Shown here: positions 18,383 to 30,278 of the stretch, one piece after another
Numbering within the stretch: position 1 is the first letter of the stretch
How the letters are laid out: every line of letters starts with the position of its first letter
Assembly: GCA_021204825.1 (NCBI GenBank)
Contig: JAJPYR010000052.1
Coordinates: forward strand, 550 to 64,549
Length of the DNA stretch: 64,000 bases
DNA from: Clostridia bacterium
GTDB lineage: Bacteria > Bacillota > Clostridia > Christensenellales > Borkfalkiaceae
Reading direction: 5' to 3'
Notes under the pieces: generated by a model
Told to the model about the DNA's origin: nothing
What the model saw: the letters and a program-made list of their open reading frames with translations, nothing else
Databases searched by the model: none
Made by a program: the position numbers and the translations under genes

Positions 18383-18411
18383 TTGACATTATAATAATTT
18401 CCGTCTAAAAT
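18383..18411 (+). promoter_or_regulatory. Promoter of XRE/ImmA operon
   Basis: TTGACA (18383-18388), 17 nt, TAAAAT (18406-18411). Followed by a GGAGG SD and the ATG at 18435. Confidence 0.6.
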
Positions 18412-18434
18412 AGGTATCGGAATGGAGGTATATC

Positions 18435-18749
18435 ATGACGGAGGATAGTTTAGGGGGGAGAATGACCGCCTTGTTGAATAGTCAGAACATGACTCAAAAG
18501 GAGCTTGCAGAAAAGGCGGGGATAACAGAGGCCGCAATATCGCATTATATCAAAGGGGATCGTTATCCAAGGTCGTATGTTTTATCAAGGATAGCAGCAG
18601 TTTTAAACACCACAACGGACTATTTAATCGGGGCCACAGGAGAGAATGATGAAATTGCCAATGCTAAAACGTTGCTTGCAAGAAACGCTTCAACAATGAC
18701 AATGCGTCAGAAAAAAGAGATAATGGATATTTTGTTTCCGGATGATTAG
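18435..18749 (+). CDS. XRE-family HTH transcriptional regulator
   Basis: LNSQNMTQKELAEKAGITEAAISHYIKGDRYPRSYVLSRIAAVLNTTTDYLIG (Cro/C1 HTH). Confidence 0.9.
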   Translation: MTEDSLGGRMTALLNSQNMTQKELAEKAGITEAAISHYIKGDRYPRSYVLSRIAAVLNTTTDYLIGATGENDEIANAKTLLARNASTMTMRQKKEIMDILFPDD

Positions 18750-18752
18750 TGG

Positions 18753-19346
18753 ATGGCTATGTATCTTGAGTATGAGACATATGAATATATAAAAGGTGAG
18801 GCTGTAGCGGTATTTAAGCAATATAGCGATTTGTCCTATCCAATTAATGCTTTTGCCGTGGCCAAGGACCTTGGTATTATTGTTGTGCCATATTCAAGTT
18901 TAGCTGATGACATGATGGAAAAATGCATGCAAGAAAGTAAAGATGGGTTTTACTATCCAGGTGATTTTTTTGATGACGAGAACACGACGGATCATATTTA
19001 CTATAATGATTCACAAGTTGAAAGTAGAATAACTTACACTATATTGCATGAGATAGGACATGTAGTGCTTGATCATGAACCAACGACTAATCGTGGACTG
19101 ATAGATGATGATAGACGCGAGGCGGAAGCAAATTTCTTTGCTAAGTATATTCTTGCTCCACCCCCGCTTGTTAATCTGATAATGCCACAGGGTCCAAAGG
19201 ATATAGTCAAATGGTTTCATGTTAGTAAGGAAGCAGGCCAATACGAATACACATATTATCAAAAGTGGCTTGATTTGCCATTTCATATGTATACAGAGTA
19301 TGAATCTTATCTTATAGATAGATTTGCCTGTTGCTTTAATAAGTAA
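18753..19346 (+). CDS. ImmA/IrrE-family (M78, COG2856) zinc metallopeptidase
   Basis: HEIGHVVLDH (HExxH) followed by EAEANFFAKYILAP. Starts 3 nt after the XRE gene. Confidence 0.85.
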   Translation: MAMYLEYETYEYIKGEAVAVFKQYSDLSYPINAFAVAKDLGIIVVPYSSLADDMMEKCMQESKDGFYYPGDFFDDENTTDHIYYNDSQVESRITYTILHEIGHVVLDHEPTTNRGLIDDDRREAEANFFAKYILAPPPLVNLIMPQGPKDIVKWFHVSKEAGQYEYTYYQKWLDLPFHMYTEYESYLIDRFACCFNK

Positions 19347-19432
19347 GTTGAGGTCTTGGTCCACATATCTATGGTGGGCATAAATACATTGACGCGAGCT
19401 GTATTGATACTACCAATGTTAATGCAGCAGAT

Positions 19433-19474
19433 GGAGATATGAATCCTTTGAGTAAGTTTTCATTTCATATCTCC
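19433..19474 (+). repeat. Dyad motif copy A (GGAGATATGAA-20 nt-TTCATATCTCC) containing conserved 22-mer GATATGAATCCTTTGAGTAAGT
   Basis: Perfect 11-bp arms. Located 39 nt upstream of the DUF4417 ATG. Confidence 0.85.
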
Positions 19475-19512
19475 AATATTGTAAATTATAAAAACTTTTA
19501 TAGGAGAGAGAA

Positions 19513-20283
19513 ATGAAAAAAATCTCGAAGAAAGTCCACCATAAAGATGGATCTGTTTCCCGTTGCCCTGAAGATATTTATCGTCTTCTGAATCTCAGTG
19601 TATTGCATTACACGAATATGACACACAGTGCAGAAGGAACGGATATGCCTGTTGTGCCTTGTGATACGCATTTTATCCCGGATTTCCTGGCTCTATACAG
19701 TGAACCAGGATTGTATCATAAAACACCATTAACTGCTGTGTGTTTCTATGAGTATGATTATCTGTTTGATGATATAGATGGAATATACAACGCAATCTAT
19801 TACAACAAGAAGGATTTGCTGGACAGATACAGGGAGAGATTCAAAGATGTCCGCATCTTCATATCGCCGGATTACTCGGAATTTGGTGATTTACACAAGC
19901 CGGAGAATGAATACAGACTGTGGAAAGCCAGAATAGTATCGCTTTGGATTATTAATGATCTTAAAGCAATTCTCATCCCTAGTATAACGTATGTATCAAG
20001 GGAGACTTTCCCTTTTTATTTTAGTGGATTGGAAGATTGTTCTGTTGTTGCCTTCAGTACAAAGGGGCATATCAGGAACAAAGAAGACAGGGCTTTGCTT
20101 GTTGCTGCAGTAAAGTATGCTGTTGACCATCTTCCTCTCAGTACAATAGTTGTTTATTCGGTGTGTGGTCATGACGAGACTTCATTGGAGTTGTTCCGCT
20201 ATGCAAAGGAGAAAGGTGTTGATGTTATAATCCCAAATAACTCTTTACGAGAGCGCAATATGGGAAGGTGCTCTCATGAATAG
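19513..20283 (+). CDS. DUF4417-like protein (function unknown)
   Basis: 256 aa. The pattern ...FYEYDYLFDDIDGIYN...ISPDYSEFGDLHKPENEYRLWKARIVSLW...IPSITYVSRETFPFYFSGLEDCSVVAFST... matches my memory of the DUF4417 family. Its stop overlaps the start of gene X (ATGAATAG). Confidence 0.6.
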   Translation: MKKISKKVHHKDGSVSRCPEDIYRLLNLSVLHYTNMTHSAEGTDMPVVPCDTHFIPDFLALYSEPGLYHKTPLTAVCFYEYDYLFDDIDGIYNAIYYNKKDLLDRYRERFKDVRIFISPDYSEFGDLHKPENEYRLWKARIVSLWIINDLKAILIPSITYVSRETFPFYFSGLEDCSVVAFSTKGHIRNKEDRALLVAAVKYAVDHLPLSTIVVYSVCGHDETSLELFRYAKEKGVDVIIPNNSLRERNMGRCSHE

Positions 20284-20801
20284 CGGCGCATGCAAGCTGA
20301 CAAACGGGCTTGAGGGATTACAGCTTAGCATTAACCAGATTCAAACCATAAATCAGATTTATGAAAACGAGATTGCTTTAGCTGATAAGATATCCGCAGA
20401 GGAGAAGCGCGATTTCTACATGAATAAGTTAGCAAAATCATGTCCTATATCAATCCCTTCAGATACAGAGATTAAATACCAAACTAAGGAAGGGTACATG
20501 CAGGTGACATACACATTTGGCGATGAGAATGTAAAATTTTCATGTAGATGGCATACAAGAAACCCAAAGGCAGCGAAGAAAACAAAAAGCTGCGTGCTAT
20601 TGGGTAATAGAAAAGCATTATATGGGCATAGGGGCAGGTGTGAATCATAGACTATCTGGACGTTATGTTTTGACTGGATTTTCAACTAATGGAGAGCCCA
20701 TATGGACAACCATTGATGATTGGAACAATGCGAAATATGCAAAGTCTACAACAGAAGCACAGAGGCAATTACTGGATGCTGGGCATTGGGAATACAAGTG
20801 A
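20276..20801 (+). pseudogene. Gene X copy 1, frameshifted after the A-run at about 20584-20595
   Basis: Frame 2 ends at 20650 (…KKTKSCVLLGNRKALYGHRGRCES*). Frame 0 from about 20595 continues CYWVIEKHYMGIGAGVNHRLSGRYVLTGFSTNGEPIWTT...DAGHWEYK*, collinear with the C-terminus of intact copy 2. Confidence 0.75.
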
Positions 20802-20925
20802 GTTTTATTGTAAACTCTCCGATCCAATTTTGGATATGCGTTAAAAAATAGGGATGCTGTTTGCATTAAATATTCTCCATAATGAAAAAGCCCGATGAGT
20901 GCTACCAACACCCACCGGGGTAAAG

Positions 20926-20957
20926 GATATGAATCCTTTGAGTAAGTATATTCATAA
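20926..20957 (+). repeat. Dyad motif copy B (same 22-mer, shorter 7-bp stem)
   Basis: GATATGAATCCTTTGAGTAAGT is identical to copies A and C. It lies 46 nt upstream of the Y copy 1 ATG. Confidence 0.8.
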
Positions 20958-20992
20958 TAATATCAAAATTATTTGTTGTCAAGTTTATTTTT

Positions 20993-21409
20993 ATGAGCGG
21001 ACAGCGTATTTACGTGAGGTATAGGACATTGATTATATTTAATTTACCAGATTACAGATTCTATGATGGCTTTGAGGGAGAGGGGGAACTGGAGCTTGAT
21101 TTAGATGGGAATAGAGAAGAATCAATCCATATTTGGGAGGGGTATCTCAATGATGTGCTGCATGACCCAGACTTGAGTGGCAACGGCTGGACTGGTTTCA
21201 TGAGGGACTGGCAGCAAGGTGAAAGAACTCTGGATTCATACAGACAGAATGTTCCCATAGAAGATATAGATGAGTATATAGCGGACTGGAAGCAGTATGA
21301 GAACAGACAATTTATGTTTCCAGACTCCAAAGAATGCTATGAGTTCATTCTGGCTTTCCTGGAATACGCCAAATCCACGGGCCGCATAATATATGCTACA
21401 TACTGGTAA
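20993..21409 (+). CDS. Gene Y copy 1, small acidic protein of unknown function (immunity-like by context)
   Basis: 138 aa ending ...ECYEFILAFLEYAKSTGRIIYATYW*. Paralogue of 22558-22935. The true start may be the TTG at 21029 (LIIFNLPDYRFYDG). Confidence 0.65.
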   Translation: MSGQRIYVRYRTLIIFNLPDYRFYDGFEGEGELELDLDGNREESIHIWEGYLNDVLHDPDLSGNGWTGFMRDWQQGERTLDSYRQNVPIEDIDEYIADWKQYENRQFMFPDSKECYEFILAFLEYAKSTGRIIYATYW

Positions 21410-21436
21410 TCACACAGGAAGACAGCAGGAGACACA

Positions 21437-21589
21437 ATGAAAGTTGCTTTGGACATAAGCACCGTTACTTGCGAGGATATAGACTTCACGCCCCTTAATG
21501 AGACTGCAGCTTCAATGCTCCCTTCGGTGAGAATCCAGATGCCTTTAATGAAAATATAGATGCCATTATAATCGACAAGGTCTAACATA
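21437..21589 (+). pseudogene. Degenerate 5' fragment of the 2-hydroxyacid dehydrogenase gene
   Basis: ATGAAAGTTGCTTTGGACATAAGCACCGTTACTTGCGAGGATATAGACTTCACGCCCC is near-identical to the start of the gene at 22962, including the upstream GGAGACACA SD. It then decays with indels and stops. Confidence 0.85.
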
Positions 21590-21625
21590 AGCTGTGTTAA
21601 TACTACCAATTTTAATGCAGCCAAT

Positions 21626-21667
21626 GGAGATATGAATCCTTTGAGTAAGTTTTTATTTCATATCTCT
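21626..21667 (+). repeat. Dyad motif copy C
   Basis: GGAGATATGAA...TTCATATCTCT, 10-bp arms, same 22-mer. Confidence 0.85.
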
Positions 21668-21706
21668 AATATATATAACTTTACATCAATTTTATTGGAG
21701 AGAGAA

Positions 21707-21844
21707 ATGAAAAAAATCTCGAAGAAAGTCCACCATAAAGATGGAGCTGTTTCCCATTGCCCTAAAGATATTAATCGTCTTATGAATCTTATTTCTCATA
21801 ACTCTTTACGAGAGCGCAATATGGAGAGGTGCTCTCATGAATAG
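21707..21844 (+). pseudogene. In-frame deletion remnant of DUF4417 gene (45 codons: N-terminal ~28 aa joined to C-terminal ~15 aa)
   Basis: MKKISKKVHHKDGAVSHCPKDINRLMNL / ISH / NSLRERNMERCSHE*. It keeps the SD, the ATG and the ATGA-type overlap with gene X copy 2. Confidence 0.8.
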
Positions 21845-22370
21845 TGGTGCATGCAAGCTGACAAGCGGGCTTGAGGGATTACAGCTAAGCATCAACCAGA
21901 TTCAAACCATAAATCAAATTTATGATAATGAGATAGCTCTTGCAGATAAGATATCCGCTGAGGAGAAGCGTGATTTCTACATGAACAAGTTAGCTAAATC
22001 ATGTCCCTTATCAATCCCTTCAGATGCAGAGATTGAGTATCAAACCAAGAATGGGTACATGCAGGTGGCATATACCTTTAGTGATGATAATGCTAAATAT
22101 ACATGCAGATGGCATACAAGAAATCTCAATGCCATGAACAAAACAAAAAAGGCTTGCTATTGGGTTATTGAAAAGCATGTAATGGGGAAAGGCTATGGCA
22201 AGGATTACCACCCTGCAGGGTGGTATGTGCTGACTGGTATTTCAAATAATGGAGAGCCTATATGGACAACAGAAGTTGAGTGGAGAAAAGCACGAAATGC
22301 AAATTATAATAATCATGCAACAGAAGGGCAAAAGGAATTGCTCGAGTCTGGACACTGGGAATACAAATAA
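21837..22370 (+). CDS. Gene X copy 2 (intact), 177-aa protein of unknown function (toxin-like by context)
   Basis: The N-terminal ~57 aa are nearly identical to copy 1 and the C-terminal third is much more diverged. Conserved CRWHTRN and GHWEYK* features. No family recognised. Confidence 0.7.
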   Translation: MNSGACKLTSGLEGLQLSINQIQTINQIYDNEIALADKISAEEKRDFYMNKLAKSCPLSIPSDAEIEYQTKNGYMQVAYTFSDDNAKYTCRWHTRNLNAMNKTKKACYWVIEKHVMGKGYGKDYHPAGWYVLTGISNNGEPIWTTEVEWRKARNANYNNHATEGQKELLESGHWEYK

Positions 22371-22454
22371 CTATATCCAAGGATGAAATATTTTCCGTGC
22401 AATCGAGAATGTGTAATAAAAAAGGAAGTTAAGACCTCGCTATCGAGAACAAAA

Positions 22455-22473
22455 ATCAATTCTTTGAATAAGT
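22455..22473 (+). repeat. Degenerate dyad-motif copy D
   Basis: ATCAATTCTTTGAATAAGT matches ATGAATCCTTTGAGTAAGT at 16/19 positions, upstream of Y copy 2. Confidence 0.5.
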
Positions 22474-22557
22474 GTTTTAATGAAATTATAAACATTAAGT
22501 TTTCGAATACAAGTGAGAAGTTTAGAGACTAAACAACAAAAAGTAGGCTATTTGATT

Positions 22558-22935
22558 ATGGATATGTTTAATTTACCCGATGATCGCTTTTATAACGGCT
22601 ATGAAGATGAACCCGAAGTGGAGCTTTCATTGGATGGCAACGAACAGGAGTCTATCCATATTTGGTTTGGTTACATATCGGATATCTTGGATCATCCTGA
22701 TTTGAGCGGCAACGGATGGACAGGTTTTATGCGGGATTACCAGCAGGGTGAACGTACTATCGAAAATCTTGGCCAAATTGTTCCTATAGATCTGGATGAG
22801 TATATTGCAGACTGGAAGCAATATTCGGACAGGGTTTTTGACTTGCCGGAGACCAAGGAATGTTATGATTTCATCCTTGCCTTCATGGAATACGCCAGGC
22901 GTGAGGGCCGTACCGTCACCGTGACATACTGGTAA
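22558..22935 (+). CDS. Gene Y copy 2, small acidic protein of unknown function (immunity-like by context)
   Basis: MDMFNLPDDRFYNGYEDEPEVELSLDGNEQESIHIW...GNGWTGFMRDYQQGERT...ECYDFILAFMEYARREGRTVTVTYW*. The upstream 15 codons of the track ORF (GTG start) are less likely. Confidence 0.65.
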   Translation: MDMFNLPDDRFYNGYEDEPEVELSLDGNEQESIHIWFGYISDILDHPDLSGNGWTGFMRDYQQGERTIENLGQIVPIDLDEYIADWKQYSDRVFDLPETKECYDFILAFMEYARREGRTVTVTYW

Positions 22936-25294: not shown

Positions 25295-25635
25295 TGTCTT
25301 CCCATGGGCAGACTGCTGCCCGCAAAAATTTCCTGTCCATTATATCATACAAAATATCAATTGTAAAAGCATTTGATTCCGCCTTTTTACAGAATCTGCA
25401 AGAATCTGAAGAATATAAAGCATTTGTAAAGATCACATAAAAATAAAAGCTTGATATATTTCCGCATTTTGAGGAAAAACATAAAAATATTCAACCTGTG
25501 CGGTTGGAATCGGACTTTTGACGTCTGATTGCTGACCGCATAGTTTTTTACTCTTCAAATTCATCGTGTAAAGTGGTCCGGTTCTGGACCCTTTAAATTG
25601 CTTGGTTTGTAGGTAAGTATTTTTTACATTTTTTC

Positions 25636-25664
25636 TTTACATTCTGCCTATATACGTGTATAAT
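25636..25664 (+). promoter_or_regulatory. IS-internal promoter
   Basis: TTTACA, 17 nt, TATAAT, upstream of the SD AAAGAGG and the ATG at 25699. Confidence 0.5.
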
Positions 25665-25698
25665 ACTTTGTAATGTAGGTAAGAAAGAGGCTTTACAG

Positions 25699-25941
25699 AT
25701 GTTCGTTCACGCCATACCAAACAACCGTGGCAAGAAAGATGGATACTTCTGTTCTCTGGTAGAATCACATCGTGTTAATGGAGTTCCAACACATAAAACG
25801 ATTCTTTCCTTTGGGTTCATCCCTGCTGAAAGGGTTCCATATCTGAAAGCTGCCTTCAATACCGGAGATCCTGAGGAAATCTTAGCTCAGGAGAAAAGTA
25901 GGTTAGAAAACAGAAGGACGGAGGCACAGAAAGATGAGTAA
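25699..25941 (+). CDS. IS ORF1, small N-terminal/accessory protein
   Basis: 80 aa. GYFCSLVESHRVNGVPTHKTILSFG resembles N-terminal segments of IS4/IS1634-type transposases. Its stop overlaps the ORF2 ATG (GATGAGTAA). Confidence 0.55.
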   Translation: MFVHAIPNNRGKKDGYFCSLVESHRVNGVPTHKTILSFGFIPAERVPYLKAAFNTGDPEEILAQEKSRLENRRTEAQKDE

Positions 25942-26215
25942 ACAGACAGGCAAAACAGAACCCAAGAAACAGGCAACCCTTGAGGTAATTGCAAGAATTA
26001 CGGATGCCGATGGAACTGTTGTGGAGAAGATAACATCCTCCATAGGTTTCCCCTCTACTGATGACTTTGATTTGGAGACCCGTGAGGGGTTCCTGAATGA
26101 CTTTGATCCTATGGAGAAAGCCGGTCTGGAGGGGCGCGAGGCTATCCCGCAGGTCTGTTCCGAATACCTTGAAGTTGCAGCATCCAAAAAAAAACCAAAA
26201 AAGGAAGACGAGTAA
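25934..26215 (+). CDS. IS ORF2, N-terminal part of transposase (upstream of A9 slippery run)
   Basis: 93 aa ending ...EVAASKKKPKKEDE*. The A9 run lies at 26186-26194. Confidence 0.55.
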   Translation: MSKQTGKTEPKKQATLEVIARITDADGTVVEKITSSIGFPSTDDFDLETREGFLNDFDPMEKAGLEGREAIPQVCSEYLEVAASKKKPKKEDE

Positions 26216-26265
26216 CATCTGTTGAGTCTGAACTGGGGCGTGTACCGTTCTCCTGCTTTGGTTCA

Positions 26266-27477
26266 TTGGCCGGTTCTATTCAACCCAAAGAACGCATTCC
26301 GTCTTACGGGTTTACGGAGCTTTGCTGCCGTTTTAGTACTTCGTGTAGTTATCGCAAATCCGTTGAGATGATAAACAGAGTCTTCCACAGACCCGTTGCA
26401 GATGAGATAAAAGACCGCACTTTCTCTGACTACATACATCGTGTTGGGGAGGGAATTATATCAACAGAGCAAAGTGCTTCCAATAACATACTGCAGGTAT
26501 TTGGCTTTGATTCCAAAACCGGACAGCTGAAAGAGAATGTCACTTTGCCTAATGATTTCACTGGAAATGTGGAAGATGAAGATGGTGATTCCACCCCCAC
26601 ATATACAGAAGAAGACATCCAGGGTGCAATTGATGAAATCAATGGATCCAGAGACAAGAAGATTACTGCAAAGGCAGATGATATCCAGGCTGAAATAGAA
26701 ACCAATTCAGACACTGCAGTATATATCTCAATAGATCACATAGGAGTGACGCGCCAGAAGGACATTAGAAAAGGCAATGCTGTCCGGGAGACAAAGTATG
26801 TACAGAACTGTGTAGCTCATATTCAGCAGAGTGATAACAGATATGTCCTTACAAGTGTTGACACGGACAGCCTTTTTAAGGCTGTTCTGGCTTTTCTTCT
26901 TGCCAACAATCTGCTCAAATATAATCTCGTATTCTTTACGGACGGTGCAACTGACCTCAAGTCTAAAATTGCATCGTTCTTTTCATTCCGTCCATACAAA
27001 CTTATTCTCGATTGGTATCACATAGAGAAAAGAATATATGAGATTTTGAGTATGGCTGTTTCAGGGAACAAGGCAAAGAAACAAGGAGTCCTGGAGAATA
27101 CGCTTGGATACTTGTGGGTTGGCGATGTTGACGGAGCTGCCAATTTCATAAAGTCACTTCCTAACAGTGACATTAAAAATGCCGCGAAGGTACAGGAAGT
27201 TCTTAACTATCTGGACAAAAAGGCTCCGAATATGGCCTGTTATGCGGTACGGAAGCAACTTGGACTCAGAGTATCCAGCAACCGCGTTGAAAAGGAGAAC
27301 GATATGTTGGTGGCAAGCAGACAGAAGCACAATGGTATGTCATGGACCAAGGACGGAAGTGGTTCCTTGGCGGCAATTGAAATGATATACCAAAACAAAC
27401 AGGAAAAACTCTGGTTCCAAAAGAAGCAGATTCTTGGCATCACCATGGTTGCCTCAGTGACCCTTAAAGCAGCCTGA
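26266..27477 (+). CDS. IS ORF3, DDE transposase catalytic part (ISLre2/ISKra4-like); frame is open from 26173
   Basis: ISIDHIGV..., FFTDGATDL, LDWYHIEKRIYE, VSSNRVEKENDMLVASRQKHNGMSWTKDGSGSLAAIE are typical of this transposase group. A -1 shift at the A9 run would fuse it to ORF2. Confidence 0.8.
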   Translation: MAGSIQPKERIPSYGFTELCCRFSTSCSYRKSVEMINRVFHRPVADEIKDRTFSDYIHRVGEGIISTEQSASNNILQVFGFDSKTGQLKENVTLPNDFTGNVEDEDGDSTPTYTEEDIQGAIDEINGSRDKKITAKADDIQAEIETNSDTAVYISIDHIGVTRQKDIRKGNAVRETKYVQNCVAHIQQSDNRYVLTSVDTDSLFKAVLAFLLANNLLKYNLVFFTDGATDLKSKIASFFSFRPYKLILDWYHIEKRIYEILSMAVSGNKAKKQGVLENTLGYLWVGDVDGAANFIKSLPNSDIKNAAKVQEVLNYLDKKAPNMACYAVRKQLGLRVSSNRVEKENDMLVASRQKHNGMSWTKDGSGSLAAIEMIYQNKQEKLWFQKKQILGITMVASVTLKAA

Positions 27478-27554
27478 CAAACTATTCCAACCGCACAGGT
27501 TGAAAATATTCCGCGCTGATTTTTTATTCTTTTGTTCAATATACCTAAAAAACG

Positions 27555-27583
27555 TTTACTTTTTATTGAAAATACTATATAAT
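27555..27583 (+). promoter_or_regulatory. Promoter of XRE-M78/PIN operon
   Basis: TTTACT, 17 nt, TATAAT, then the SD GGAGGTG and the ATG at 27605. It lies about 50 nt from the right end of the IS. Confidence 0.55.
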
Positions 27584-27604
27584 ATAAACATTGGAGGTGA
27601 AATT

Positions 27605-28648
27605 ATGAGTTCATTTAGCAAGAATTTAAGATTTTACAGGTTGAAGAGTGGAATGACGAAGAAGGAGTTGGCGGACAAGTGCCAGCTTACCCCGATGGCA
27701 ATCTCTAATTATGAGAATGGGAAGCGTACCCCTAGATATGATCTTATTGAAGAGATTGCAAATGTGTTGAACGTTCGCTTTGTCGATCTTATTAATACTA
27801 GAGATGAGTCACTGGTTTTCAGTTATGGGGAATTCAGGAAGAGTGAATCTTTAAGTGGCTATCAGGAAGAACTGATAAAGGCGTCCACAGAAGATTACCT
27901 TGACAGTCTTCTCAGTGCTGCTTTTTTCATTTCAGGGAAGGTTTTACCTGACTGTCCTTCTTGTCATGTCCTGAATTTGAGCGACAATATTGAAAATGAT
28001 GCAAAAGCGCTGAGGCAGTATCTTGGTTTCCCTTTAAGCGGACCCATCCCCAATATGATTACTTCACTTGAGAATAAGGGCATACTTGTTTACAAATGTT
28101 ATGACGCCGGGGAGGCTTTTTCTGGTATGAACGGGTTTGTGAATGACAGACCGTTCATAGTGATTAATGGGAATATGAATCCTGAAAGGAATCGCGCAAC
28201 CATGGCACACGAACTCGCACATTTGATGTTTATAAGGGATGATGCAATGTCATCCAAGGCCATAGAGAGCAGGGTTACCGCAATCAGTGGGGCCTTTCTT
28301 ATAGGATTAGCTGATTTACAGCTTGAAGTTGGAATTAAGAGAGATGAAATCACTTCGGACATGCTTATGGTCTGCAAAAAGTATGGAATATCATCCTGCT
28401 TGCTGGTTAGGAGAATGAAAGTAACGGGTATTATAGAAGACAGTCTAGAAGAACAGTTCTATACGGATCATCCTAGCTGGCACGAAGAAGAACCGTCACG
28501 TATACAGGATGAGTCATCAGATTTATTAGAGCAGTTAGTACTCCGTGCTATATCAGAGAGAGAAATCAGCATAATGAAAGGGGCTGAGCTCCTAAAAGAT
28601 AATTATGATGGAGTTCTAAATAGATTAAATAGGATAAGAGAGGGTTAA
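27605..28648 (+). CDS. Fused XRE-HTH / ImmA-IrrE (M78, COG2856) metallopeptidase protein (antitoxin/sensor-like)
   Basis: Start MSSFSKNLRFYRLKSGMTKKELADKCQLTPMAISNYENGKRTP (HTH). HELAHLMF (HExxH) in the central domain. The N-terminal 35 aa of the track ORF are rejected. Confidence 0.85.
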   Translation: MSSFSKNLRFYRLKSGMTKKELADKCQLTPMAISNYENGKRTPRYDLIEEIANVLNVRFVDLINTRDESLVFSYGEFRKSESLSGYQEELIKASTEDYLDSLLSAAFFISGKVLPDCPSCHVLNLSDNIENDAKALRQYLGFPLSGPIPNMITSLENKGILVYKCYDAGEAFSGMNGFVNDRPFIVINGNMNPERNRATMAHELAHLMFIRDDAMSSKAIESRVTAISGAFLIGLADLQLEVGIKRDEITSDMLMVCKKYGISSCLLVRRMKVTGIIEDSLEEQFYTDHPSWHEEEPSRIQDESSDLLEQLVLRAISEREISIMKGAELLKDNYDGVLNRLNRIREG

Positions 28649-29191
28649 ATGACACTAATAAGCAGTGATACTAACATTTGGCTTGATTTTGAAGCCATAG
28701 GGGAACTTGATGTTCCCTTCCTTTTACCTTATACGTACCTGATGGCCAAGAAGGCTATCTCCAAGGAAATTCTTCGCCCTGAAGATCTTGCATTGAGGTT
28801 AAAAAGATATGGTCTGAAAGGAGTAACTCTTGATGAGACCGAAGAGCTTTTGGTGGAATCATATAGCAGCAATAACATGCCCAAGTGCTTTCGCAGACTG
28901 ACCAACTATGACAGGATGGCACTTGCTATAGCAAAAAACCGCGGCATCATGTTGCTAACAGGTGATAACTATTTAAGACAGGCCGCTGAGGCAGAGCACG
29001 TTCCTTATATGGGAACAATCGGGCTTCTGGACAAGCTCAATGAAGCGGGGTTTAGGGAGCAGTACAGCAGGTGTTTGCAGGCCTTTTACAAGGCATTGAA
29101 CGATGTGAGAATTCGTTTACCCAAGGAAGAACTCAAGACCAGATTGGATATTTTGGAAGCGTCTGAAGGAGGTAAGCACACGGATGAATAA
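28649..29191 (+). CDS. PIN-like nuclease domain protein (DUF3368/COG2405-like), putative toxin
   Basis: The ATG directly abuts the upstream TAA (TAAATG). N-terminal SSDTNIWLDF (acidic PIN residue), ...YDRMALAIAKNRGIMLLTGDNYLRQAAEAEHVPYMGTIGLLDKL resembles the PIN C-terminal half. Confidence 0.65.
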   Translation: MTLISSDTNIWLDFEAIGELDVPFLLPYTYLMAKKAISKEILRPEDLALRLKRYGLKGVTLDETEELLVESYSSNNMPKCFRRLTNYDRMALAIAKNRGIMLLTGDNYLRQAAEAEHVPYMGTIGLLDKLNEAGFREQYSRCLQAFYKALNDVRIRLPKEELKTRLDILEASEGGKHTDE

Positions 29192-29226: not shown

Positions 29227-29255
29227 TTGACACCCTATATGGGCGTGGATATAAT
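29227..29255 (+). promoter_or_regulatory. Promoter of FMN riboswitch-ribU unit
   Basis: TTGACA (29227-29232), 17 nt, TATAAT (29250-29255). Confidence 0.7.
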
Positions 29256-29261
29256 ATAGCC

Positions 29262-29385
29262 GAAAGTTGTTCTTTGAGGCGGGGCGTAATTCCCCACCGG
29301 CAGTATAGTCTGCAAAGAAGGTTTTCCTTCCCGAACAGGTGAGATTCCTGTACCGACAGTTACAGTCTGGATGGTAAAAGACGTA
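29262..29385 (+). promoter_or_regulatory. FMN riboswitch (RFN element) aptamer
   Basis: GTTCTTTGAGGCGGGGCGTAATTCCCCACCGGCAGTATAGTCTGC...GGTGAGATTCCTGTACCGACAGTTACAGTCTGGATGGTAAAAGA matches the conserved RFN core (GGGGnGnAATTCCCCACCGGCGGTA...CCGACAGTnnAGTCTGGATG). Confidence 0.9.
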
Positions 29386-29401
29386 TGCTTTTAGTGTATA
29401 T

Positions 29402-29432
29402 CCGCCCCTCATTGAACCGAGGGGCTTTTTTG
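29402..29432 (+). terminator. Riboswitch expression-platform terminator
   Basis: GCCCCTC-ATTGAACC-GAGGGGC followed by TTTTTT. Confidence 0.8.
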
Positions 29433-29471: not shown

Positions 29472-30278
29472 ATGGAAAACGAGAATGTGCAGGATCTGGG
29501 CTCTCTGCAGGATATGGACGGACGGACAGATGAAAGCCAGGATGTGAAGCCGGATGCGGCCTCCTTGGATGCACCGGAGGATGCAGCGTCGCAGGCTGAG
29601 GCTCCTGCGGACGGGCAGATGACTGAGGTTCCCGGGAAGAGAACAGCGGGGGAGAGGTTTGCAGGATACTTTACGGCCACAAGGATAGCATATATAGCCG
29701 TCTTTACGGCCCTGTCATATGTCCTGGGGCTTCTGGACTTTTCCATCCTGCCTGCAGTGCCCTTCCTGAAGGTGGACTTCTCCAATACCTTCGTAATGAT
29801 AGCGGGCTTCTCATTAGGCCCCGTTGCAGGCACCATAGTGGCCGTATTGAAGGAGCTGCTGCATGCCATAACCTTCGGCCAGACAGCGTTTGTGGGAGAG
29901 CTTGCCAACATACTGCTTGTACTGCCGTACATGTTAATACCGGCTATAGCATACCGCAGGCACAAGGGAATAAAGGTCGTAATAGTGACCCTTATTCTTG
30001 GATGCATAGCCCAGTGCATTGTCTGCATTCCGGTAAACTACCTGCTTAACTTCCCGGCATACCTTATGGCCTTCACAGGATGCACATGGCGCGAGGGGAT
30101 GGATTACTTCCTGGATCTCTGGTACTTCGCCCTTGCGTTCAACGCCATCAAGACGGCGCTTGTCTCTGTGGCCACTTTAATCGTATACAAGCCTCTGTCA
30201 AGGCTCATTAAGCTTACGGCGGCCAGGTTTGACAAGATCAAGGCAAAGAGGGAGAAAAACAGGAAGGCCTCCAAGTAA
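29472..30278 (+). CDS. ribU: ECF-transporter S component, riboflavin-specific (RibU-like) with ~55-aa acidic N-terminal extension
   Basis: Polytopic membrane protein (ATRIAYIAVFTALSYVLG...FLKVDFSNTFVMIAGFSLGP) directly controlled by the FMN riboswitch. Confidence 0.8.
   Translation: MENENVQDLGSLQDMDGRTDESQDVKPDAASLDAPEDAASQAEAPADGQMTEVPGKRTAGERFAGYFTATRIAYIAVFTALSYVLGLLDFSILPAVPFLKVDFSNTFVMIAGFSLGPVAGTIVAVLKELLHAITFGQTAFVGELANILLVLPYMLIPAIAYRRHKGIKVVIVTLILGCIAQCIVCIPVNYLLNFPAYLMAFTGCTWREGMDYFLDLWYFALAFNAIKTALVSVATLIVYKPLSRLIKLTAARFDKIKAKREKNRKASK

Follow-up and report, generated by a model that had tools for sequence, protein, structure and literature searches.

Makarova et al. 2009 (PMC2701414) found that many fused COG2856-Xre genes share an operon with a PIN or RelE toxin gene, and proposed a three-component toxin-antitoxin (TA) system. 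Matelska et al. 2017 (PMC5499597) placed COG2405 (DUF3368) among the PIN-like families which are co-transcribed with helix-turn-helix (HTH) and DUF955 domains, for example in Geobacillus sp. Y412MC61 (GYMC61_2169), where an HTH-DUF955 gene lies upstream of the COG2405 gene; UPF0175 was found there only in the COG2405 context. Zn-peptidase-antitoxin systems were named RosmerTA in the preprint of Millman et al. 2022, in which an rmrA deletion mutant could not be transformed and RmrA acts as antitoxin. Furthermore, Ernits et al. 2023 (PMC10440598) linked an ImmA/Rosmer antitoxin node (D25, NetFlax) to PIN-like domains and obtained phage defence with a phage-borne RmrTA pair carrying a membrane toxin. 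In the literature searched, bench tests cover only some RosmerTA systems, with non-PIN toxins. Here we analyse a two-gene operon of related architecture at positions 27605-29191 of a 64,000-nucleotide stretch of a Clostridia bacterium genome (family Borkfalkiaceae; assembly GCA_021204825.1, contig JAJPYR010000052.1), referred to below as the window. It encodes an HTH protein fused to an M78 zinc peptidase, followed by a PIN-domain protein.

We read this operon as a translationally coupled module of the TA type, belonging to the COG2856-Xre / RosmerTA-like class, with the PIN protein as toxin and the HTH-M78 protein as antitoxin-regulator, and we give this reading a probability of roughly three in four. 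Domains, folds, catalytic residues, operon structure, the conserved pairing and the conserved candidate operator all come from the present analysis. The pair is a well-preserved, ordinary example of a known architecture that is common in gut and rumen bacteria. What is new here is modest, namely an invariant candidate operator, figures for the co-divergence of the two proteins and a decay series of relatives.

Compared with RosmerTA, the operon has the same kind of antitoxin, an M78/ImmA zinc peptidase preceded by an HTH at the N-terminus, the same two-gene organization and the same variability of the toxin partner. However, its toxin matches none of the RmrT models of PADLOC, and it is of the nuclease type, whereas the validated RmrT of a Kita phage depolarises the membrane (PMC10440598). 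The COG2856-Xre/PIN pairs of the 2009 and 2017 reports share both architecture and gene order with the operon, in that an HTH-M78 fusion precedes a PIN gene of the COG2405 type; both reports made their predictions by comparing genomes, and the clostridial/gut subfamily, its operator and its decay series are apparently not described there. VapBC and the COG2405-UPF0175 (COG2886) pairs likewise combine a PIN toxin bearing four acidic residues with an upstream, DNA-binding antitoxin, tight coupling and probable autoregulation. Their antitoxins are small ribbon-helix-helix, AbrB, Phd or UPF0175 proteins, whereas the one found here is an enzyme-containing protein of 347 amino acids (aa). UPF0175/COG2886, the usual partner of COG2405, is replaced upstream by HTH-M78 in the window and in 78 loci. 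An M78 metallopeptidase with an XRE HTH repressor is also known from ImmR/ImmA (ICEBs1), DdrO/IrrE (Deinococcus) and CapH/CapP of the cyclic-oligonucleotide-based anti-phage signalling system (CBASS), and the protease part of our structural model matches the CapP and IrrE/PprI structures. In contrast to these systems, repressor and protease form one polypeptide here, and a single nuclease would be controlled instead of mobile-element, repair or CBASS genes.

Results

Domains, folds and catalytic residues of the two proteins

The putative antitoxin-regulator (RmrA-like) is encoded on the forward strand at 27605-28648 and comprises 347 aa. Its start was set to the ATG at 27605, since the ribosome-binding site (GGAGG, 27593-27597) and the N-termini of homologues agree with it; the TTG at 27500, which opens the longest open reading frame (ORF), was rejected on the same two grounds. 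As proposed in an initial annotation made from the sequence alone, the protein combines an XRE-type HTH with an HExxH peptidase: Pfam HTH_3 (E 1.2e-14) and Peptidase_M78 (E 1.4e-7) both exceed their cut-offs. In PADLOC, 14 RmrA models match the protein, the best of them (PDLC03949, E 1.7e-37) over residues 6-331. The HTH covers about residues 4-65, the M78 core about residues 126-235 and a helical C-terminal domain about residues 236-347. The zinc-peptidase motif is intact and consists of H202-E203-x-x-H206 (HELAH, residues 202-206, nucleotides 28208-28222) and E221 (nucleotides 28265-28267). Among 70 paired relatives H202, E203 and E221 are present in all and H206 in 69, so that the full HExxH...E is kept in 69/70. 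An AlphaFold2 (AF2) model, computed with 23 relatives in the alignment, reached a mean predicted local distance difference test (pLDDT) of 91.4. Foldseek related its protease part to CapP, IrrE and PprI and its N-terminus to XRE repressors, and the M78 region is furthermore matched by PDB entry 9vzy, a 393-aa HTH protein (E 7e-5). The spr1629 antitoxin equivalog of NCBIfam was rejected as an assignment, scoring 57 bits against a cut-off of 335.

The second gene (28649-29191, forward strand) encodes the putative toxin, a 180-aa protein of the COG2405/DUF3368 type, and is directly abutted by the stop codon of the first in the junction TAAATG. Scored as a single sequence, the protein obtained 19.0 for PIN (PF01850; cut-off 23.6) and 16.5 for DUF3368 (PF11848; cut-off 27.3). 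The family gives a clearer picture: at least 253 relatives at about 45-52% identity are labelled DUF3368 and/or PIN, with PF11848 listed among the precomputed labels, and of 32 aligned relatives all match Pfam PIN and 22 match DUF3368 (E <= 0.01). In the 32-sequence alignment D7, D13, E40, D88 and D128 are invariant and D106 is nearly so. Across 78 sequences taken from species genomes, all six residues, comprising the catalytic candidates D7, E40, D88 and D106 as well as D13 and D128, are conserved without exception. An NCBIfam scan of the protein gave no match, and when a profile of the PIN alignment was searched against the PDB, matches stayed at chance level (beta-xylosidase, E 0.13; NOB1, E 0.83). 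The PIN fold is therefore established through structure prediction. The AF2 model has a pLDDT of 91.9, and its top Foldseek matches in the PDB are mostly PIN proteins, with a probability of 1.00 and template modelling scores of up to 0.67 on the target. Named among them are HARP RNase P, VapC21, SSO1118 (2mdt), PAE2754, Nmd4 and SMG6, of which 2mdt is the structure assigned to COG2405 by Matelska et al. 2017 (PMC5499597). In PADLOC, PDC-S70, described as a PIN-nuclease defence candidate (PMC12988326), is matched by 32/32 family members and is the sole consistent match.

Conservation of the gene pair

When each GTDB species was represented by one genome, a relative turned up in 184 genomes, and the best 80 loci were analysed. 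An HTH-M78 gene lies directly upstream on the same strand in 78 of these 80 loci, or in 78 of the 79 with enough upstream sequence. The two exceptions are a locus at a contig end and a PIN pseudogene (L086) that lacks a start codon and carries two in-frame stops; apart from the contig-end locus, it is the only PIN found without a partner. The distance from stop to start, determined in 70 loci, mostly falls between -15 and +6 nucleotides (nt), with a mode of 3. Pairwise distances of the HTH-M78 and PIN proteins co-vary (r = 0.83; Mantel 0/2000), and the two proteins therefore travel and diverge as a unit. For example, in three randomly chosen relatives a 346-aa HTH-M78 gene lies 2-4 nt upstream of the PIN gene between unrelated flanks. 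Since the flanking genes vary between loci, the HTH-M78/PIN pair itself is the conserved unit.

These results bear directly on the initial annotation. It had described a TAAATG junction between the two genes, an AT-rich setting, a PIN-like nuclease of DUF3368/COG2405 type as the second product and a RosmerTA-like / COG2856-Xre TA module as the whole. Both ORFs were found as described, the GC content of the module stretch is 0.36-0.44 as compared to 0.52-0.57 in the flanks and the genome, and the PIN assignment is borne out by the pLDDT of 91.9, the PIN-dominated Foldseek list and the acidic set D7/E40/D88/D106. It had also named conserved pairing and a PIN fold as points on which it could fail computationally; given the RmrA match, the PIN fold and its complete catalytic residues, and a strictly conserved pairing, all three computable checks come out in its favour. 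One statement finds no support: the combination of HTH-M78 with this PIN subtype had been called unusual, but it is known from Makarova 2009 and Matelska 2017 and was seen in at least 78 species genomes here.

Decay of the pair in relatives

Two NCBI assemblies (loci L011 and L012) contain homologues of the HTH-M78 gene with 78% and 64% identity, respectively. In both, as in the window, a lipoprotein gene lies on one side of it and a flavin mononucleotide (FMN)-riboswitch/energy-coupling factor (ECF) transporter gene on the other, and the longer contig of L012 continues into tsaE, tsaB, rimI and a mur-ligase gene, again like the window. The flanking proteins are 70-91% identical to those of the window. 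As these shared flanks occur in diverged relatives, the module has been inherited at this site.

Together with a third relative (L010) these loci form a graded series. In the window the peptidase motif reads HELAH and the PIN gene is intact. L010, a 1.9-kb contig without flanks, retains HELAH in an antitoxin of 85% identity, and its PIN frame is broken near residue 142. L011 reads HELAR and has kept a disrupted PIN remnant of 41 residues (residues 1-41), and L012 reads YELAR and has no PIN gene. Compared with the window, the M78 and C-terminal domains of L012 are 55-57% identical and its HTH 78%. The toxin was thus lost first and the protease motif afterwards, with the DNA-binding part kept, which is the order that a TA pair predicts. 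The series hints that protease activity may matter only as long as the toxin is present.

In the PIN remnant of L011 (2478-2672) a short tandem duplication (CAGCGATTATAAG CAGCGAT...) breaks the SSDTNIW motif, and the rest of the gene is deleted. Inactivation took two steps here, the duplication preceding the deletion.

Spread of the pair and genomic context

Among anaerobes of gut and rumen, the subfamily occurs in at least about 180 species, its hosts being mostly Lachnospiraceae, Oscillospiraceae, Erysipelotrichaceae and other anaerobes of these habitats. Distant pairs (about 28-31% identity, full-length collinear) were found on conjugative and mobilizable plasmids, one a conjugative plasmid of Rhizobium and the other an IncC plasmid of Vibrio, where the pair sits directly before hsdR.

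Such a distribution would also suit a selfish addiction module that only stabilises itself or nearby accessory DNA, without contributing to phage defence. The pair is sporadic, with neither gene turning up in any of 24 sampled congeneric species or of 16 species drawn from other families of the order; it travels on conjugative plasmids, it has been kept at one chromosomal site through species divergence, and a phage collection contained no relative of the PIN protein. Nevertheless we consider pure addiction unlikely. RmrA-type systems protected against phage when tested, related PIN models are listed by PADLOC as defence candidates (PDC-S70), and a type I restriction gene adjoins one of the distant pairs. 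Moreover, a catalytically conserved protease of the signalling type is hard to explain on these terms, and the repeated loss of the toxin at the chromosomal site indicates that addiction is weak there.

Several neighbours of the pair were noted in other genomes: a SocA/Panacea-domain protein (L007, 6574-7602), a PIN7 protein beside an HATPase gene (L004, 7092-7754) and a type I restriction gene, hsdR, adjoining the pair (L096, 2996-5308). Anecdotally, these are contexts of defence islands or TA islands. A DUF4417 gene follows 200-270 nt after the PIN gene in L001 (4700-6154) and L002, an arrangement shared by 7 species loci out of the 80 analysed (L025, L027, L036, L038, L042, L055 and L072). 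The window itself carries a DUF4417 island at 18383-22935, 5 kb upstream, with its own unfused XRE (18435-18749) and M78 (18753-19346) genes, so M78/XRE switches and DUF4417 cassettes form a recurrent neighbourhood. The 2.04-Mb genome has six Peptidase_M78 genes above the Pfam cut-off, and contigs C27, C68, C70 and C96 carry frames of about 250-400 aa which may represent more HTH-M78 modules with other partners.

Promoter and candidate operator

Upstream of the operon a sigma-70-like promoter, TTTACT-17-TATAAT (27555-27583, forward strand), was found by a consensus scan with 10/12 matches. It is overlaid by a dyad, GTTTAC-N24-ATAAAC (27554-27589, forward strand), whose 5' half-site overlaps the -35 element and whose 3' half-site comes after the -10 element. 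The pattern GTTTA[CT]-N22-24-NTAAAC is present in 57/57 upstream regions of the family (110 nt upstream of the HTH-M78 gene), compared to 0.025 loci expected from shuffled sequences. The upstream consensus is tgTTTActttTtt..aAAatatg.TAtAATATAAACA, a TAnAAT -10 element lies inside the dyad in 52 of the 57 loci, and seven loci have a second dyad further upstream. The decaying relatives L010-L012 also keep the dyad, with a varying spacer. Owing to this family-wide conservation, the dyad is likely an operator through which the HTH domain would autorepress the operon.

Within the 64-kb window the pattern is present as a single copy, and in the genome it occurs at 4 places, as compared to 1-2 for a control; of these 4, only 27554-27589 has the TTTACT-17-TATAAT promoter context upstream of an HTH-M78 gene. 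This bears on the idea that the operon is a repressor/anti-repressor switch which mainly controls cargo, such as DUF4417 toxin-immunity cassettes or a mobile element, with the PIN protein as an accessory RNase. M78 proteases of known function do cleave XRE repressors and thereby induce gene sets (PMC10440598, PMC2701414), the protease part resembles CapP and IrrE in fold, and both the downstream DUF4417 genes and the DUF4417 island of the window with its own XRE and M78 genes would suit such a role. However, no regulon is visible, since the operon's own promoter is the one place in the genome where the dyad was found in such an architecture, and nothing is conserved after the pair in about 90% of the loci, where the flanks vary. 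Since, in addition, the PIN gene was never found intact without its partner and is the first component lost in the decay series, we regard a cargo switch as improbable and retain the TA reading.

Downstream of the operon, an FMN riboswitch (29266-29386; RF00050, 90 bits) with its terminator (29404-29425) comes after a perfect sigma-70 promoter (TTGACA-17-TATAAT, 29227-29255) and precedes the gene of an ECF S-component (29472-30278). The stretch from the PIN stop (29191) to the promoter at 29227 showed no terminator, and read-through from the operon would therefore enter the FMN riboswitch leader.

Discussion

Proposed mechanism and weight of the evidence

Several observations weigh against the TA reading or some part of it. 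Taken alone, the PIN protein of the window falls below the Pfam cut-offs, and compared with its family it carries a 5-aa insertion and a longer C-terminus. In the HTH-M78 protein, 30 positions that are invariant among 19 sampled relatives differ. The clade of the window is thus divergent in both proteins, and full activity is therefore not guaranteed. Neither the PIN protein of the window (E <= 0.1) nor the 32 family members (E <= 0.01) match any RmrT model of PADLOC; a standard tool would for this reason call no complete RosmerTA system, and standard defence finders would report an orphan RmrA only. The phage collection yielded no relative, and physical contact between the two proteins is putative only. 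The centres of the two half-sites of the dyad lie about 29 bp apart, a long span for a simple XRE dimer. Furthermore, the link between toxin loss and decay of HExxH comes from L011 and L012, which share H206R and are effectively one lineage, and the literature searched holds no experimental evidence for any member of the HTH-M78/COG2405-PIN subfamily.

With these points in mind, a mechanism in three steps may be drawn for a TA module. First, the HTH would bind GTTTAC-N24-ATAAAC, which brackets the -35 and -10 elements, and so keep the operon autorepressed; the conservation of the dyad throughout the family points to this step. Second, the HTH-M78 protein would hold the PIN nuclease inactive, probably via its M78 and C-terminal part. 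We infer this from the co-divergence of the two proteins, the preferential decay of the M78 and C-terminal domains after loss of the toxin and the lack of any intact PIN without a partner. Third, in analogy to ImmA, IrrE and CapP, the peptidase would be activated by some trigger, for example an infecting phage or damaged DNA, and would cut the regulator itself or a partner, whereby the operon would be derepressed and the nuclease freed. Cleavage of RNA might then arrest growth, as abortive infection or as addiction.

Somewhat speculatively, and with the balance of odds leaning against it, the M78 peptidase may itself be the trigger. The HTH-M78 protein would then be a signal-activated, self-processing antitoxin that represses its own promoter via the wide dyad and gates a PIN RNase, and the peptidase site would be under selection only as long as the toxin is present. 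If true, the subfamily would provide a tractable model for infection sensing by protease antitoxins of the RosmerTA type. Several handles on how a protease antitoxin senses its trigger and releases its toxin are at hand: a large and uniform subfamily in which the catalytic residues of both enzymes are kept, a strictly conserved candidate operator that spans the promoter, and a naturally occurring series of relatives that first lose the toxin and then the protease motif but retain the DNA-binding domain.

Neighbouring insertion sequence

An ISKra4-like insertion sequence (IS) with 8-bp target duplications occupies 25484-27510 on the forward strand (IS proper, 25492-27502); it is a neighbour and not a component of the module. 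It has perfect inverted repeats of 19 bp and is flanked by the duplication AAAATATT at 25484-25491 and 27503-27510. Its transposase matches ISKra4 of NCBIfam (E 6e-24), and the IS is single-copy in the assembly. In the homologous intergenic region of L011 and L012 it is not present. Judging from the repeats, the target duplication and its absence from these relatives, it is therefore a genuine lineage-specific insertion. The freshly inserted IS of the initial annotation thus stands, but the module beside it is no fresh arrival, as it occupies the same site in diverged relatives.

Destruction of the promoter by the IS was considered and rejected, as 44 nt separate the insertion from the -35 element downstream of it, and dyad, promoter and ribosome-binding site are intact. 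That the copy in the window is an inactive remnant heading for loss is very unlikely: although this IS lies so close, the PIN gene is frameshifted, truncated or deleted in L010, L011 and L012, and the clade departs from the family at many otherwise invariant antitoxin positions, both genes keep an intact frame, no catalytic or family-invariant PIN residue is missing, and HExxH, E221 and the control elements upstream are all preserved.

The coding region of the IS (25699-27477) is spread over three frames, with an 80-aa ORF1 overlapping ORF2 by ATGAGTAA. ORF2 ends just past an A9 run (26186-26194), where the DDE-bearing frame (ORF3) is already open; the frame break at A9 could be a programmed frameshift or a homopolymer assembly error just as well as a sign of early decay.

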